DNA from: Chloroflexota bacterium
GTDB taxonomy: Bacteria; Chloroflexota; Dehalococcoidia; Lucifugimonadales; UBA3495
Reading direction: 5' to 3'
Assembly (NCBI GenBank): GCA_009840165.1
Contig: VXOG01000091.1
Span: forward strand, 7,914-71,913
DNA length: 64,000 bases
Shown here one piece after another: positions 5,614 through 50,337 of this stretch. Each line of letters begins with the position of its first letter. Positions within the stretch are counted from its first letter, which is position 1. The notes beneath the pieces were generated by a model. It saw nothing but the letters and a program-made list of their open reading frames with translations, was not told the DNA's origin and searched no databases. Position numbers and translations under genes: made by a program.

Positions 5614-6727
5614 CTATGAACTGGACAAGCAAACCAAGGCTATCGCTGTTCGCAAAGTCAAAGAGGCAGCCTCGAAACAGTACCTGCTGACGGAGCGGGA
5701 TGATGAGTTGATGCGCGGAATCGAAAGCCACGCCGCGACCGCGATAGAGTGGTGAAACTCGAGACGTTTCACGATGCGCCTGGCCTCGGCGGCGGGGAAG
5801 GTTTCGTAGAGGGACGCCATGAGGTGGATGTTCAGGTTGTCGAGAACGACGCGGACCACGGTAGCGTCGGGGTAGGCGGTGTCCACCAGCCATTGCATCT
5901 GGTGGGCGAAGTCCTGCATGGTGCGCCGCTCCGTGATGGCCACGTGGCGCCAGCAGGCCAGTGGTTCACAGAACAGGAAGAGGTGGCGAGTGCCACCACG
6001 GCGGTACTCGTAGTCCTGGCGCCTGGGCCGGTCCGGCTGAGCCGGCAAGGGTTCTCGCACATCCGCCAGTCCGCCTGCGGCGGAGGTGGAGGTCTCGTCG
6101 AAGCACACCACCGGACGCCTGGGGTCGTAGGGTTCGGCGTAGAGGTCCAGCACGTCCTCCATAGCCGCCACAAACTCCCCGTTCATCTGGGAGATGCATC
6201 CGTCTCTGGCGGACTGCTTTCGCCAGGGCTTGAGGGTGTTTTTTCAGCCGCAGCCTGACCGTCTCATACGACAAGCTATCCACCAGGCCCAATTCCACCA
6301 CCTTGTCGGCCAGCAGCCACAGAGTCCAGTGATCATGGCCCTCAGGGGCGTCGCGGCACGCCAGAGCGATCAGAGCCTGCCCCGTACTTGATACGGGGTG
6401 GGCTTCACCGCGATCATCCAGCTTGCGATATCGATTGGCCTGGGGATGATCGTACAGTACCCCATCCAAACCTTCTTCCGCGTACCGCCCCTTGATGCGA
6501 AACACCGTGCGGGGCGACGTGTCCAGCGCCGCCGCCACTTGGGACGCGCTCCAGCCTCCGGTGGTGAAGCCTTGCCCGTCAACGCTCCTCACGACTACCC
6601 AATCGCTATCACCCGACTGAGTGAAGAATTCTGCAAGGTTTTCGCCGTGTCCGAGGCTCCGGCACTTCGGTTGCCTTTCGGTGCCAACATATTGCAGCAG
6701 CAGAGCCATCCCGATGATGAAACCCAC
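5614..6727 (-). mobile_element. IS630-family transposase gene, frameshifted and decayed
   Basis: The N-terminal HTH part (...SASQVAAALDTSPRTVFRIKGRYAEEGL...HWTLWLLADKVVELGLVDSLSYETVRLRLKK) and the DDE part (KNTLKPWRKQS..MNGEFVAAMEDVLDLYAEPYDPRRPVVCFDETS...DYEYRRGGT...VVLDNLNIHL...LEFHH) are in different frames. They switch at the T6/A6 run 6239-6244. The C-terminal WLNxxEIE block is degenerate (AWLSIPRIN). Ends and IRs not determined. Confidence 0.75.
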
Positions 6728-7180: not shown

Positions 7181-8494
7181 GTGATGCGAAACAAGCTTAC
7201 TCGAGGGACGGAACCGATGCCGGACGGCCTGCGAGCCGCCGTTGCCCAGGCGGTCCGCACGTCACATGACTATTTTGTCGCTACTCAAGCGCCGGAGGGC
7301 TACTGGTGCGGCGAGCTGGAATCCAACGCCACCATGGAGGCCGAGTACTTACTGTTCACCCACTTCATGGGCATTGGCGACAGCGACACCTGGCGTAAAT
7401 TGGCGAATCATATCCTCAACGTCCAGCGGGAAGATGGAACGTGGGGACAGTACTACGGAGCGCCCGGAGACCTGAGCACCACCGTGGAGTGCTACTTTGC
7501 GCTGAAGCTCGCCGGCTATTCGGTCAATGACTCGTGCCTAGTAAAGGCGCGGGAGTTTATATTGCAGAAAGGCGGCGTTCCTCAGACCCGCGTCTTCACC
7601 AAAATATGGCTGGCGCTCTTCGGTCAGTGGAGCTGGGAGGACGTGCCCACAGTTCCACCGGAAATATCGCTGTTGCCGTCGTGGTTCTCAATGAACCTTT
7701 ACGACTTCTCGAGTTGGGCGCGAGGCACGATACTGCCGCTCAGCATCGTTCTCTGGTACAGACCGGTGTGCCCTATACCTGAAGAAGCAGCCCTTCCTGA
7801 GCTCACTCCCAGTGCGCAACGTAACCATGCGGGGACAGTCGCGCGGCGGCGCACGTCCGGCATGGCCGGAGCATTTCACCTGGCGGACCGCGCTCTCCGG
7901 TGGTACAACTCGCTTCCCTGGCATCCAATGCGTGGACTGGCCATCCGCAGGGCTGCCGGGTGGATCGTAGATCACCAGGAGGAGGATGGTTCGTGGGGTG
8001 GGATTCAACCGCCTTGGGTGTACTCGCTCATCGCTCTCAAGTTGCTCGGATACGGGATTGACCATACGGTCATGCACAAGGGCGTGGAGGGGTTCAAGGA
8101 GTTCATGATCGAGGAAAACGACTCGCTGCGCGTCCAAGCCTGTGTGTCGCCGTTGGCCGGGCAGGGACCCAGCACGGCGTCCCAAACAGCGTGGGCATTG
8201 CTCGCACTGGTTTCGGCCGGTGAGTGGGAACACCCGTCCGTGCATCGAGGGCTACAATATCTGGTGAATACCCAGCGTCAAGATGGCGCCTGGGATGAAC
8301 CCTGGTTCACTGGAACGGGTTTTCCGGGCTACGGAGCGGGAGGACGGCTCAAGGGCAGCGGCAGGGAGAGCAGTAGCATCATTCAGGGGACGGAGTTATC
8401 AGGCGGTTTCATGATCAATTACCATCTCTACAGGAACTACTGGCCACTGATGGCGCTTGGTCGGTTCCTGGAGCGCATGGTTCGGGAGGCCTGA
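7181..8494 (+). CDS. Squalene-hopene cyclase homologue with in-frame internal deletion (catalytic DxDD region absent)
   Basis: 437 aa against about 630+ for SHC. N-terminal and C-terminal SHC blocks and QW motifs are present (QREDGTWGQYYG, HQEEDGSWGGIQPPWVYSLIALK, TASQTAWALLAL, TQRQDGAWDEPWFTGTGFPG). The sequence jumps from ...RVQACVSP directly to LAGQGPSTASQTAW. Confidence 0.75.
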   Translation: MMRNKLTRGTEPMPDGLRAAVAQAVRTSHDYFVATQAPEGYWCGELESNATMEAEYLLFTHFMGIGDSDTWRKLANHILNVQREDGTWGQYYGAPGDLSTTVECYFALKLAGYSVNDSCLVKAREFILQKGGVPQTRVFTKIWLALFGQWSWEDVPTVPPEISLLPSWFSMNLYDFSSWARGTILPLSIVLWYRPVCPIPEEAALPELTPSAQRNHAGTVARRRTSGMAGAFHLADRALRWYNSLPWHPMRGLAIRRAAGWIVDHQEEDGSWGGIQPPWVYSLIALKLLGYGIDHTVMHKGVEGFKEFMIEENDSLRVQACVSPLAGQGPSTASQTAWALLALVSAGEWEHPSVHRGLQYLVNTQRQDGAWDEPWFTGTGFPGYGAGGRLKGSGRESSSIIQGTELSGGFMINYHLYRNYWPLMALGRFLERMVREA

Positions 8495-11097: not shown

Positions 11098-11134
11098 TCA
11101 ATTACGGCCTTGATTCATCGGGCCGGGGCGCGCC
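11098..11134. repeat. 37-bp perfect direct repeat, copy 1
   Basis: tcaattacggccttgattcatcgggccggggcgcgcc, identical to 12043-12079. Lies 12 nt upstream of the CoA-transferase start at 11085. Confidence 0.95.
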
Positions 11135-44335: not shown

Positions 44336-44364
44336 TTGACCGGCAGAGGATACGTTGATACTAT
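44336..44364 (+). promoter_or_regulatory. Sigma70-like promoter TTGACC-17-TACTAT (with TG extension) upstream of phnD
   Basis: ttgacc ggcagaggatacgttga tactat. Lies 43 nt upstream of the ATG at 44407. Confidence 0.4.
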
Positions 44365-44406
44365 CGCGCCAGTTTATTCGCTTTGCGCGATACAGAAGGA
44401 AAGCCC

Positions 44407-45315
44407 ATGCCCTCATTGTCAATATCCGTTCGCTTCCTGCTGGTATCCATGGTGGCGGTTTTCGTGGCTTTGCTTGCCATGGCTTGCGCCCAGGAAGAGG
44501 CTCCGACCTTGCGCGTTGGCGGCATACCCGACCAGGACGCCGAACGCCTGGCGCGACGCTATGAAATCTTCGCCGACTATCTGTCCAAAGAGCTTGATGT
44601 TCCGGTGGAATACGTGCCCAGCGTGTCCTACTCGGCGGTGGTGACCGCGTTCACCCAGAACGACGTGCAACTGGCGTTCTTCGGCGCGCTGACCGGCGTG
44701 CAGGCCCGGTTGCAGAACCCCGGCGCACGGGCTATCGTACAGCGTGCCCACGATGCCGAGTTTCACTCCAACTACGTCGTGCGTGGAGGCGACGAGTTCG
44801 CTGACCTGAACAGCCTGGATGATCTGGTTGGCAAGACCGGCGACCTGACTATCACCTTCGGCAGTGAGAGCTCCACCTCCGGCCACCTGATGCCGCGGTA
44901 TTTCCTGGGCGAGGCCGGCATTAACGTCGCCAACGATTTCCGCACGCCACCGGGATTCTCCGGTTCTCACGACAAAACCTGGCAGCTGGTGGCGGCCGGA
45001 TCCTACGACGTGGGCGCGCTGGCCGAGGACGTGTGGGCGCGAGCGGTGACGGAGGGCGCGGCCGACCCCGCGCAGGTACGCGAGTTGGACACCACGCCGA
45101 ACTATTTCAACTACAACTGGACGGCGCGCGCTGATTTGGACGAAGTGTACGGCGACGGATTCACTGACAGAGTGCAGGCCGCCCTGCTGGCGCTCAATAC
45201 GCAAGAGCATGGCGAGATCCTGGAACTGTTCAGCACCGATCAGTTCATCGCCACGGAGAACGCAAACTACCAGGCCATTGAGAGCGTAGCGCGGGAACTC
45301 GAAATAATACAATGA
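44407..45315 (+). CDS. phnD: Phosphonate ABC transporter substrate-binding lipoprotein
   Basis: Signal and lipobox FVALLAMAC. LRVGGIPDQDAERLARRYEIFADYLSKELDVPVEYVPSVSYSAVVTAF. Confidence 0.8.
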   Translation: MPSLSISVRFLLVSMVAVFVALLAMACAQEEAPTLRVGGIPDQDAERLARRYEIFADYLSKELDVPVEYVPSVSYSAVVTAFTQNDVQLAFFGALTGVQARLQNPGARAIVQRAHDAEFHSNYVVRGGDEFADLNSLDDLVGKTGDLTITFGSESSTSGHLMPRYFLGEAGINVANDFRTPPGFSGSHDKTWQLVAAGSYDVGALAEDVWARAVTEGAADPAQVRELDTTPNYFNYNWTARADLDEVYGDGFTDRVQAALLALNTQEHGEILELFSTDQFIATENANYQAIESVARELEIIQ

Positions 45316-47932: not shown

Positions 47933-49495
47933 CTACGGGCCGTGCTCATAAACCTCCGTGTCCGGGTGGTACTGGAACCAGCCGAACCAGAATGACGTGA
48001 TGCTGGGAATGCGCGGCAACTGTTGGGAAGGGTCGGCGGCGGGGACCAAGCCTTGCTCGGTGACCATCCATCGCGCTCCGGTATCGTCCACCAACGCGGC
48101 CGGCGCGAGTTCGGGATCATCGTTTCCCGCCGGCGCGAAGGTCAGATCGTCGCGCTCGTAGATGCGGCCGGCCCTCGATTCGGGCGACGCCACCACCACC
48201 ACGTTCAGCCCGCCCACGGTGTCGTTAACTAGCCGGGCATCCTGCAAGTCCTGCACCGCGTAGGCTTTTGCCGATTCGTCAATTGACAGGCCGACGACCA
48301 CGGTTTTCGGCTCGAAGGTATCGTCTCGGAGCCATACCGGGAACATCACCTCATCAGCGGTGAAGTAGTTGTAGTAGATGGCCAGGGGGTTGTCCTCGGG
48401 CACGTAGAACTCGGCGGGATAGACGCCGGTGTCCTGGGCCAGCACCGTGGTGTCAGGATGATCATCCCACCATTCGCCCCAGGTGGTAACCACCGAGGGG
48501 AAGAAGGGCTGCCGGATGCCCGAACCGGCCAACGGGCCGATGACCGGCTCTCCGATGAACTGGTTCCACAGGGAGCGAGTGGCTCGGTCGTACATCACCT
48601 TGTTGCTGCGGTAGAGCAGGCCGGAAGTGCCGAAGGTGGTGGGTTCGCCGTTGACAATGCCGGAATACACGATTCCGGTGCCGCAGAGGGTTCAATACAC
48701 CAGCGAGATGGGTTCGCCGCCCAGGGTGTCGTTGGCCAGCTCGTGGGCATTCATCACGCGCAAGGGGTAGGCGCGATGCTCGCCGTTGATGGATACGCCA
48801 AACACCCGATCACCGGGCCACAGATAAGTGGCCTGCTCGGGCAGCACGTGGGGCGGATGCTCCAGCGGCGGGATGCCATCCACGCGGACGCCGCCCCAGA
48901 CGACCTCGGTGAGATTGACGCGGGAACGCTCGATGCCGGGTTCCAGCAGGGCGGCCATGTCGGGGTCGATTATCGCCAGCCCATTCACTTTCCAACGCCC
49001 GTAGTCGGACGGCGGGGCGTATTCCTCTTCCCGCGCGCCAACGAACTCGCGCCAGCGGCGGCGGTCGAAATCGAAGTCCTGTCCGGTCAGTTCGGTAAGG
49101 GTATCCAGGCCGGCGCGGGCAACGTCAAGGTTGAAGAACTTGAGGGCCTCCAGGATGACGTAAGCCTGGGACTTGTCGTTGTGGAATACGGTGTCTTCCA
49201 GCGCGGCCAGGGAATCGCCGGGATCGTGTCCGAGACCGTCCCAGATACCGTACATGGTGCGGTTGGGGTCGTAGGGTTGCTGGGAGTAGGGAGTGGCCGG
49301 CGCTTGAATGGCGAGCGTTGCGGTAGCGCCGGATTCGGCCGTGGGCGGCGCGTCTGTGGCCGGCGGCGGCTCGGTCAACGCTAGCGATGGTTCATCACTG
49401 CGGGCCGGCTGACCGCACGCCGTGATGAATGCAGCAACCGTAAGGGCGACGACCAACATACCACCCCAACGGGAAATTATCGGCGACAGCGACAT
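47933..49495 (-). CDS. DUF3179 domain lipoprotein interrupted by one in-frame TGA (candidate selenoprotein, or pseudogene)
   Basis: ORFs 48692..49495 and 47933..48670 share a frame and together form one DUF3179-like sequence: ...DGIPPLEHP...FGVSINGEHRAYPLRVMNAHELANDTLGGEPISLVY-TGA-TLCGTGIVYSG...FGTSGLLYRSNKVMYDRATRSLWNQ...SFWFGWFQYHPDTEVY. Signal and lipobox AAFITAC. Confidence 0.7.
48660..48694 (-). other. In-frame UGA (48692-48694) and downstream 7-bp hairpin (48660-48678), candidate SECIS
   Basis: mRNA: UGA ACC CUC UGC GGC A CCGGAAU-CGUGU-AUUCCGG. The hairpin starts 13 nt after the UGA. Confidence 0.4.
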
Positions 49496-49566
49496 CCGTA
49501 CCTCCCAGACTGGCCGAAACTAACTCTATGCCGGTGCATAGATTACGTTTGGCCGGCCGGAGAGGA

Positions 49567-50337
49567 TTAATCGAACTGGTAGGGGTAGATCACCTGGACG
49601 ACGCGGCCGTCGCGGAGGGCCTCGAAGTAGCTGTGCGCGACGCCGGGCTGCTGGAGCCAACGCCGGACAAAGTAAGCGCAGAGGTTGACCAACTGGGCGC
49701 CCACGCAGGTTTTCGATGGCGCGACGATGAGATCGTCGTACATGGATGGCGATACGGTGTCCGATTCTTCGCCCAGGAACTCGGTCAACGCCGCGGAGAT
49801 GGACGGCGATTCGGAGCCGGCCATCAGCATCGCATAGTCGCGGACGTCCCAGACCGACTGCATGATGTCGTCGGGGTTCATCTGCGCCATCACGTTCTCG
49901 TCCAGGAACATGGTGAGCGCCAGGAGAAACCGGCTGAAGGCGAGGCGGGACGGGTCGGTATCTCCGTAGAGGGAGTTGCCATCGGTGGACGTGGCAGCGA
50001 CGTAGTCGCCCTTGTTGATGTAAGAAACAATCAGCGGGGTTTCCCGGCGGATGAGGATGTTCAGACAGTCCTGAATCAGCTCAGCGCGCTGTGCCGGCCG
50101 CCAGGCGCGGAACGGGCCGGTGCCTTGATAGACGTGCCGGGGGTTGATCTCGGCGGGAACGCCGTCCGAACCGGGAGGGCTGCCGAAATGCCGGCGCACC
50201 AGAGCGTCGTACTCCCCGCACATTGATATGTACTGATTTTCCTGAACCAGGAGGCCGGCGTGGATATGGTGCGGTTGGTTGGGGTCGTTGGCGCTGGCGC
50301 CGGTGAGTCCGGACTCGCTGAGAAAAACCATATACAT
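49567..50337 (-). CDS. DUF3800-like protein
   Basis: 256 aa. The N-terminal MYMVFLSESG matches the characteristic (Y/F)xDESG start of DUF3800 proteins. Confidence 0.5.
   Translation of the reverse strand: MYMVFLSESGLTGASANDPNQPHHIHAGLLVQENQYISMCGEYDALVRRHFGSPPGSDGVPAEINPRHVYQGTGPFRAWRPAQRAELIQDCLNILIRRETPLIVSYINKGDYVAATSTDGNSLYGDTDPSRLAFSRFLLALTMFLDENVMAQMNPDDIMQSVWDVRDYAMLMAGSESPSISAALTEFLGEESDTVSPSMYDDLIVAPSKTCVGAQLVNLCAYFVRRWLQQPGVAHSYFEALRDGRVVQVIYPYQFD

Follow-up and report, generated by a model that had tools for sequence, protein, structure and literature searches.

In a 64,000-nucleotide stretch of a Chloroflexota bacterium genome (contig VXOG01000091.1, positions 7,914 to 71,913; hereafter the window), a gene for a DUF3179 protein on the minus strand (49495 to 47933) is interrupted by an in-frame TGA. 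On translation, this region forms one 520-codon frame whose single internal TGA (48694..48692) is followed by T-L-C-G. The open reading frame (ORF) listing of the locus gives two minus-strand ORFs instead, 48692..49495 (267 amino acids) and 47933..48670 (245 amino acids). A previous sequence-only reading had described these as two ORFs in a common frame with one TGA between them, and translation returned the same coordinates. Judged from sequence, 49495..47933 is very probably one intact 520-residue DUF3179 gene in which the UGA at codon 268 is read as selenocysteine (Sec). The small doubt that we retain concerns retention of the Sec pathway in this genome and physical incorporation of selenium.

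The encoded protein is continuous across the stop. With X placed at the stop, the read-through product matched the Pfam family PF11376 in one stretch covering profile positions 2-292 of 292 (E=1.9e-72; 244.6 bits, gathering cut-off 27), in agreement with the earlier proposal that a single DUF3179 protein is conserved on both sides of the stop. Among the 2,804 relatives returned by a protein search, the best were full-length proteins of ~540 amino acids with no more than 50-53% identity. At the stop column, 21 of 21 full-length homologues (38-53% identity) have Cys, which opens their C-[TV]-L-C-G motif, so the placing of the UGA on the conserved motif Cys, with U-T-L-C as the local motif, proved correct. 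The second motif Cys (Cys271) was invariant in the same alignment. The sequence at the site is ...SLVY-U-TLCGTGIVYSGIVNGEPTTFGTSGLLYR, Tyr267 preceding U268. The Cys-form DUF3179 lipoproteins of ~540 amino acids (P0001-P0120) resemble the window gene in having the lipobox Cys, the linker, the helical N-terminal domain and the DUF3179 domain. They share 38-53% identity with the window protein over 85-100% of the length and have the same C-T-L-C-G context, but they have Cys (TGC) where the window gene has the predicted Sec (TGA). Features of the gene are collected in Table 1.

Table 1. Coordinates of the predicted selenoprotein gene and its features in the window
Feature	Position	Strand	Details and basis
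Complete gene of the predicted selenoprotein	47933..49495	-	ATG 49495..49493; predicted Sec-UGA at codon 268; stop TAG 47935..47933
Predicted selenocysteine codon U268, in-frame UGA, first position of U-T-L-C	48692..48694	-	Homologue alignment
Cys271 codon, putative resolving Cys of UxxC	48683..48685	-	Invariant alignment column
Predicted SECIS hairpin CCGGAAU / AUUCCGG, apical loop CGUGU (48667..48671)	48660..48678	-	Fold and comparison
DUF3179 domain (PF11376), amino acids 206-513, across the UGA	47957..48880	-	Pfam
N-terminal all-helical domain, amino acids 77-190	48926..49267	-	AlphaFold2 helices, pLDDT > 90
Predicted lipoprotein signal peptide, lipobox I-T-A-C ending at Cys27	49415..49495	-	Motif
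Shine-Dalgarno-like GGGAGG, putative function	49501..49506	-	5 nucleotides upstream of ATG, read from sequence

The TGA at 48692-48694 recurs in a second assembly of run SRR9841444: an independent Logan contig of this run was identical to the window, base for base, at the TGA and at the hairpin that follows it. The locus also occurs on ERZ23491722 (ENGE20-1_SAMN12347673_METAG-scaffold_307, 72,220 bp), which likewise agrees with the window at the TGA and the hairpin and where the annotation divides the gene into two DUF3179 pieces (267 and 245 amino acids). The public gene calls for window positions 47933-49495 correspond to L124, 10001-11563. Full-length matches in the protein database were Cys forms only. 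Because the annotation is split and the Cys forms alone appear as full-length protein matches, Sec forms of DUF3179 are under-represented in protein-level resources and hidden from protein-level searches. TGA terminates many other genes of the window, such as the PhnD-like gene at 44359-45315, and therefore the genetic code is not reassigned.

Contigs representing one genome per species were scanned with the pattern TGA-ACN-YTN-TGY-GG, a gap of 46-55 nucleotides and then F-[GR]-T-S-G, which gave at least 120 loci. Three of the 120 scan matches (L007, L066 and L120) were spurious; DUF3179 genes carrying TGA at the same column account for at least 116 loci, drawn from more than 110 species. Among the matches listed, to which the statements on orthologues in this and the following paragraphs refer, the open frames extend 240-270 codons downstream of the TGA and usually 260-500 codons upstream of it, and the contigs are labelled Dehalococcoidia, SAR202 or Chloroflexota, except one labelled Actinomycetes. 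When the read-through protein was used as a tblastn query, single high-scoring segment pairs (HSPs) spanned the stop, with orthologues at 60-83% identity; the nearest were L115 (JAJDWF010000043.1) and L117 (JAPPCX010000086.1) at 83%, followed by orthologues at 81, 80, 77 and 72%. In the tblastn HSPs of related loci, the Cys column was a stop in 119 cases and Cys in three, and these three are Cys paralogues that adjoin Sec copies in L095, L113 and L114. The ratio of nonsynonymous to synonymous substitution rates (dN/dS) between the window gene and six orthologues (Nei-Gojobori method, dS 0.6-1.2) was 0.10-0.27 before the UGA and 0.09-0.18 over the 248 codons after it, and no frameshift or additional stop was found in the window gene against these six. 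The codon of Cys271, which lies between the UGA and a downstream GTG, varies synonymously (TGC in 100 genes, TGT in 9), and is therefore translated.

Several genomes have two Sec-DUF3179 copies, namely OZ253584.1 (L025 and L049), OZ240229.1 (L002 and L084) and L012, in which the two copies stand in tandem (L012:1855-3844). Orthologues also lie on complete Dehalococcoidia chromosomes, for example OZ247427.1. The contig labelled Actinomycetes is L010, although the gene it carries is of the type usual in the Dehalococcoidia clade.

The sequence-only reading had also pointed to a perfect 7-bp hairpin, CCGGAAU-CGUGU-AUUCCGG, 13 nucleotides after the UGA, and had suggested that its distance and size suit a selenocysteine insertion sequence (SECIS). 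The hairpin is present as described. The stem begins 13 nucleotides and the loop 20 nucleotides after the UGA, and the stem-loop alone folds at -8.8 kcal/mol. The consensus for bacterial SECIS elements (bSECIS) comprises a loop of 3-9 nucleotides, a stem of 4-16 bp, a G within the first two loop positions, 16-37 nucleotides from UGA to loop and a minimum free energy <= -7.5 (PMC13188914). We applied these values directly, and the window hairpin lies within all of them, with a 5-nucleotide loop, a 7-bp stem and G at loop position 2 followed by U, so that the suggested compatibility with a SECIS holds.

Comparison of orthologues indicates that the hairpin is constrained as RNA. Its core, GGAAUCGUGUAUUCC, was near-invariant in 116 distinct sequences, and its codons GGA AUC GUG UAU UCC had the lowest codon entropy (H) among 111 conserved-residue columns in 109 full genes. 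Val was encoded by GTG in 106 of 108 genes (H=0.15; other Val columns have 1.5-1.8) and Ser by TCC in 103 of 105 (H=0.14; other Ser columns have 1.4-1.6). Tyr was TAT in 105 of 109 genes in the hairpin, whereas TAC is preferred at every other Tyr column; likewise, Gly was GGA in 98 of 109, whereas GGC is preferred at other Gly columns. The Ile codon was ATC in 103 of 108. In the alignment, 87% of the stem cells were paired, compared with 20-59% when the 3' arm was slid by 1-3 columns. The pair directly outside the invariant core (columns 24 and 40) covaries (CG 75, UA 22, GC 2, UG 1), and the outermost pair (columns 23 and 41), which is formed in the window, shows compensatory changes (CG 28, GC 9). 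The hairpin is absent from Cys-form paralogues and homologues, whose corresponding later codons, for example GGC AUC GCA UAC AGC, are unable to form the GGAAU/AUUCC pairing. Taken together, the UGA column, the orthologues, the synonymous conservation and the covariation support the earlier proposal that Sec has replaced Cys in a UxxC motif followed by a SECIS.

A hairpin in this position is also found where the stem sequence is different. A divergent Sec clade (L078:5314-5385, L093:4378-4449, L098:5967-6038 and L111:3178-3249; …VVF-U-TLCGLGIVYDAEF…) is without the GGAAU/AUUCC core and folds GGC-A-UCG / CGA-C-GCC with the loop UGUA at the same position. A second Sec-DUF3179 paralogue of a different subfamily (L009:1-205, minus strand, CAYWGG010000216.1; …VVITY-U-PLCNTAF…) shares its contig with a U-T-L-C copy. 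Its hairpin is in the same register, with the stem CCGCCU/AGGCGG and the loop UCGUGUUC, the 50-nucleotide segment folding at -17.5 kcal/mol. Despite the different stems, G-U at the loop start is kept in both the divergent clade and the L009 paralogue. Compared with the canonical bacterial SECIS of the Escherichia coli fdhF type, the window hairpin is likewise a stem-loop in the coding sequence directly after the UGA, with a small apical loop, G then U at the first loop positions and a UGA-loop distance (20 nucleotides) within the range of 16-37. However, it has no sequence similarity to the fdhF SECIS, its conserved stem is just 5-7 bp with no bulged U evident, and its core is unusually invariant, the last because the core also encodes the conserved peptide G-I-V-Y-S.

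A second patch of low synonymous diversity lies at 48587-48607 on the minus strand, codons +29 to +35 after the UGA (S-N-K-x-M-Y-D). In 109 orthologues, AAC was used in 105, AAG in 103, TAC in 101 and GAC in 105, a diversity below that of the other Asn, Lys, Tyr and Asp columns of the same gene. Either biased codon usage in a strongly conserved segment or another constraint on the RNA could account for this patch.

Several results weigh against Sec insertion at this UGA. The stability of the hairpin was no better than that of shuffled sequence (z=+0.48 and -0.03) in a coding context of 62% GC; the significance of the hairpin is thus due to the comparative data, not to thermodynamics. RNAalifold gave no consensus structure for the 117-sequence alignment, because the conserved core of 5-6 bp is thermodynamically marginal. 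No Rfam SECIS family matched positions 48560-48760 even at E<=10, a result that carries no weight on function since bacterial SECIS elements are described as diverse. Most stem pairs are invariant and hence uninformative on pairing, and the shuffle control overstates significance because the sequences are related. No selA, selB, selD or tRNA-Sec gene was found within the 64-kb window. In addition, Sec incorporation in DUF3179 proteins is computational in the cited literature, and PMC1976440 describes no experiment on the candidate OS_HP1, to which we return below.

E. coli SelA, SelB and SelD gave nothing by tblastn against the window, the only RNA gene of the window was a tRNA-Pro (a tRNA alone in the Rfam scan at the gathering threshold), and tRNA-Sec was found neither in the window nor in 16 related loci. 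selD-like and selA-like matches in related loci were weak (23-31% identity), and a SelB-like ORF in L078 was LepA by Pfam; the weak matches are probably paralogues, the L078 LepA being the single case examined. Two Dehalococcoidia entries stand among the most selenoprotein-rich species with the Sec pathway in the BSepDB paper: Dehalococcoidia bacterium UBA1141 (49 selenoprotein genes) and a further metagenome-assembled genome (MAG; 46 genes). In our set, UBA1141 corresponds to locus L061, which has the same UGA and SECIS core as the window.

If Sec is inserted, the following mechanism is plausible. The ribosome would reach the UGA, and the hairpin 13 nucleotides downstream, with G-U at positions 2-3 of the loop CGUGU, would act as SECIS. 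It would recruit SelB-GTP and Sec-tRNA(Sec), Sec would be inserted with no termination, and the product would have U-T-L-C in place of the C-T-L-C of the family. These steps are those of the standard bacterial pathway, which we infer for the window gene. Sec insertion, SelB binding, lipoprotein localisation and a redox role are in this sense predictions.

The absence of Sec genes within 64 kb, and a cited literature that reports no experimental selenium incorporation for DUF3179, would also suit a read-through without selenium, in which the UGA is read as Cys or Trp (by near-cognate suppression or by a Cys-tRNA(Sec)) or the Sec pathway was recently lost. However, the UGA and the SECIS core are intact in the window and identical to those of Sec-pathway lineages such as UBA1141, and strong purifying selection persists in the window lineage. 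To our knowledge, no other mechanism maintains a SECIS-like hairpin. We consider this explanation improbable.

It may also be asked whether the locus is a split gene, with termination at the UGA and restart eight codons later, at the conserved GUG (48670..48668), to give two polypeptides, so that the conserved GGAAUCGUG would be a ribosome-binding site and start codon and not a SECIS. The GUG at codon +8 is kept in 106 of 108 genes with GGA before it, and ORF finders start the 245-amino-acid ORF there. However, codons +1 to +5 (T-L-C-G-x) are conserved as protein and vary synonymously (ACG/ACC/ACT, CTC/CTG/CTT, TGC/TGT, GGC/GGT/GGA), and therefore are translated, and the interval between UGA and GUG includes the invariant second motif Cys. 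Moreover, UAUUCC on the 3' side of the GUG varies just as little and forms covarying pairs with GGAAU, the spacing from GGA to GUG is just 4 nucleotides, and all Cys forms are single polypeptides. We therefore regard a split gene as very unlikely. The remaining alternative, named in the sequence-only reading, is a simple nonsense pseudogene in which TGC or TGT became TGA by one base change and inactivated a Cys-form DUF3179 gene whose downstream part is decaying, as the split public gene calls (267 and 245 amino acids) and a window without Sec machinery might suggest; this is effectively refuted on the comparative data, because the 248 downstream codons are constrained (dN/dS 0.09-0.18 at dS 0.6-1.0) and the stop is common to at least 116 loci of more than 110 species with intact frames, not broken elsewhere, in which the hairpin is frozen at synonymous sites in UGA forms only.

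Insertion of Sec thus remains the favoured reading, and it places the window gene in a family that has been described. The sequence-only reading had left open whether Sec-containing DUF3179 proteins are catalogued, and they are: such proteins (UxxC/T) are listed in PMC9312934 and PMC13188914 and attributed to Zhang & Gladyshev 2007 (PMC1976440), a study of Olavius algarvensis symbionts in which the new families are computational predictions with SECIS-like stem-loops. From its position in the review table, Sec-DUF3179 appears to be OS_HP1 of PMC1976440; that paper asks for experimental verification solely of other, weaker candidates. The window U-T-L-C fits the catalogued UxxC/T motif. Like the window gene, the catalogued proteins belong to the same Pfam family, have Sec at the first UxxC position in place of the conserved Cys, and have a SECIS-like stem-loop immediately 3' of the UGA. 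The original Sec-DUF3179 is from a deltaproteobacterial symbiont (Olavius algarvensis delta-1), whereas the window gene is from Dehalococcoidia/SAR202-type Chloroflexota. The window gene also differs in an additional N-terminal part of ~200 residues (lipoprotein signal, linker and helical domain) and in being annotated as two ORFs in a public assembly. Among the papers searched, none links SAR202 with selenoproteins or treats the prevalence of Sec-DUF3179 in SAR202.

The window gene is therefore a mis-annotated further member of a catalogued selenoprotein family, in a lineage recorded as selenoprotein-rich. Knowledge of Sec decoding is unchanged by it, the family being already in selenoprotein catalogues, while re-joining the two ORFs makes the proteome of this abundant marine lineage more accurate. 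Conservation of a predicted Sec with a frozen SECIS across more than 110 species points to the U/CxxC centre as the core of DUF3179 function, and a dependence of a probable cell-surface protein on selenium is indicated for SAR202-type bacteria. We tentatively raise the possibility, which we hold at somewhat below even, of a large and previously undiscussed SAR202/Dehalococcoidia clade of extracytoplasmic, lipid-anchored selenoenzymes. It would cover more than 110 species, some of which have multiple copies or neighbouring Sec and Cys paralogues, with a fold that has no counterpart in the PDB and a near-frozen SECIS core.

The N-terminus of the protein points to a location outside the cytoplasm. 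Cys27 was near-invariant in 22 aligned proteins and is preceded by a hydrophobic stretch. Because this stretch resembles a lipoprotein signal with the lipobox ITAC, the mature protein is probably held by a lipid anchor on the outside of the cytoplasmic membrane. Together with the motif, the signal peptide suggests that the Sec/Cys pair may be a redox or metal/chalcogen-binding centre outside the membrane. Should the pair indeed act catalytically on the cell surface, DUF3179 would represent an envelope enzyme of a new kind, with a role in redox reactions or in the handling of chalcogens or metals, and such an enzyme would matter in a dominant deep-ocean and sponge-associated lineage. The AlphaFold2 model (mean predicted local distance difference test score, pLDDT, 86.9; predicted template modelling score, pTM, 0.80) consists of a helix (residues 10-23), a disordered linker (23-70), the helical domain (77-190) and a beta-rich DUF3179 domain. 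No Pfam family covers the conserved helical domain, the Pfam match being confined to residues 206-513, and in Foldseek this domain had faint alpha-repeat/HEAT-like matches only. A sequence search of the PDB gave no match, Foldseek of the whole model against the PDB gave nothing below E=0.4, with faint Rieske-like and alpha-repeat similarities, and NCBIfam has no model for the protein.

The neighbouring genes are a convergent PhnD/C/E/E-type ATP-binding cassette (ABC) transporter, an ORF of 256 amino acids directly upstream, ribosomal protein L25 and an Opp-type transporter. This neighbourhood is syntenic in close relatives only and gives no functional lead. The upstream ORF (49567-50337, minus strand) is on the same strand as the DUF3179 gene and has no Pfam or NCBIfam match. 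It adjoins the DUF3179 gene in nine related loci at 70-89% identity, and is possibly co-transcribed with the selenoprotein gene.

The MAG names of L117 (IRC4_bin_11), L079 (RHO3_bin_54) and L010 (COS1_bin_4) resemble bin labels of sponge microbiomes. Since L117, which is among the nearest relatives, bears such a name, the window organism may be host-associated, the basis being these three record names only.

When a stricter composition filter was used to find selenoprotein candidates in the window, the DUF3179 gene alone remained; applied to related loci, the filter was too noisy, save for the L009 Sec-DUF3179 paralogue. Three other same-frame TGA junctions of the window (6389-6391, 8492-8494 and 11098-11100) were rejected as candidates, as they resemble ordinary gene ends or non-coding sequence. 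By eye from the translation, the junction at 8492-8494 on the plus strand follows a terpene-cyclase-like ORF of 443 codons, which seemed short for its family, and precedes an FAD-oxidoreductase-like ORF starting MMYDVIIAGAG. At 11098-11100 on the minus strand, inspected in the same way, a nuclease-like ORF is followed by a CoA-transferase-like ORF starting MPGILSEL.

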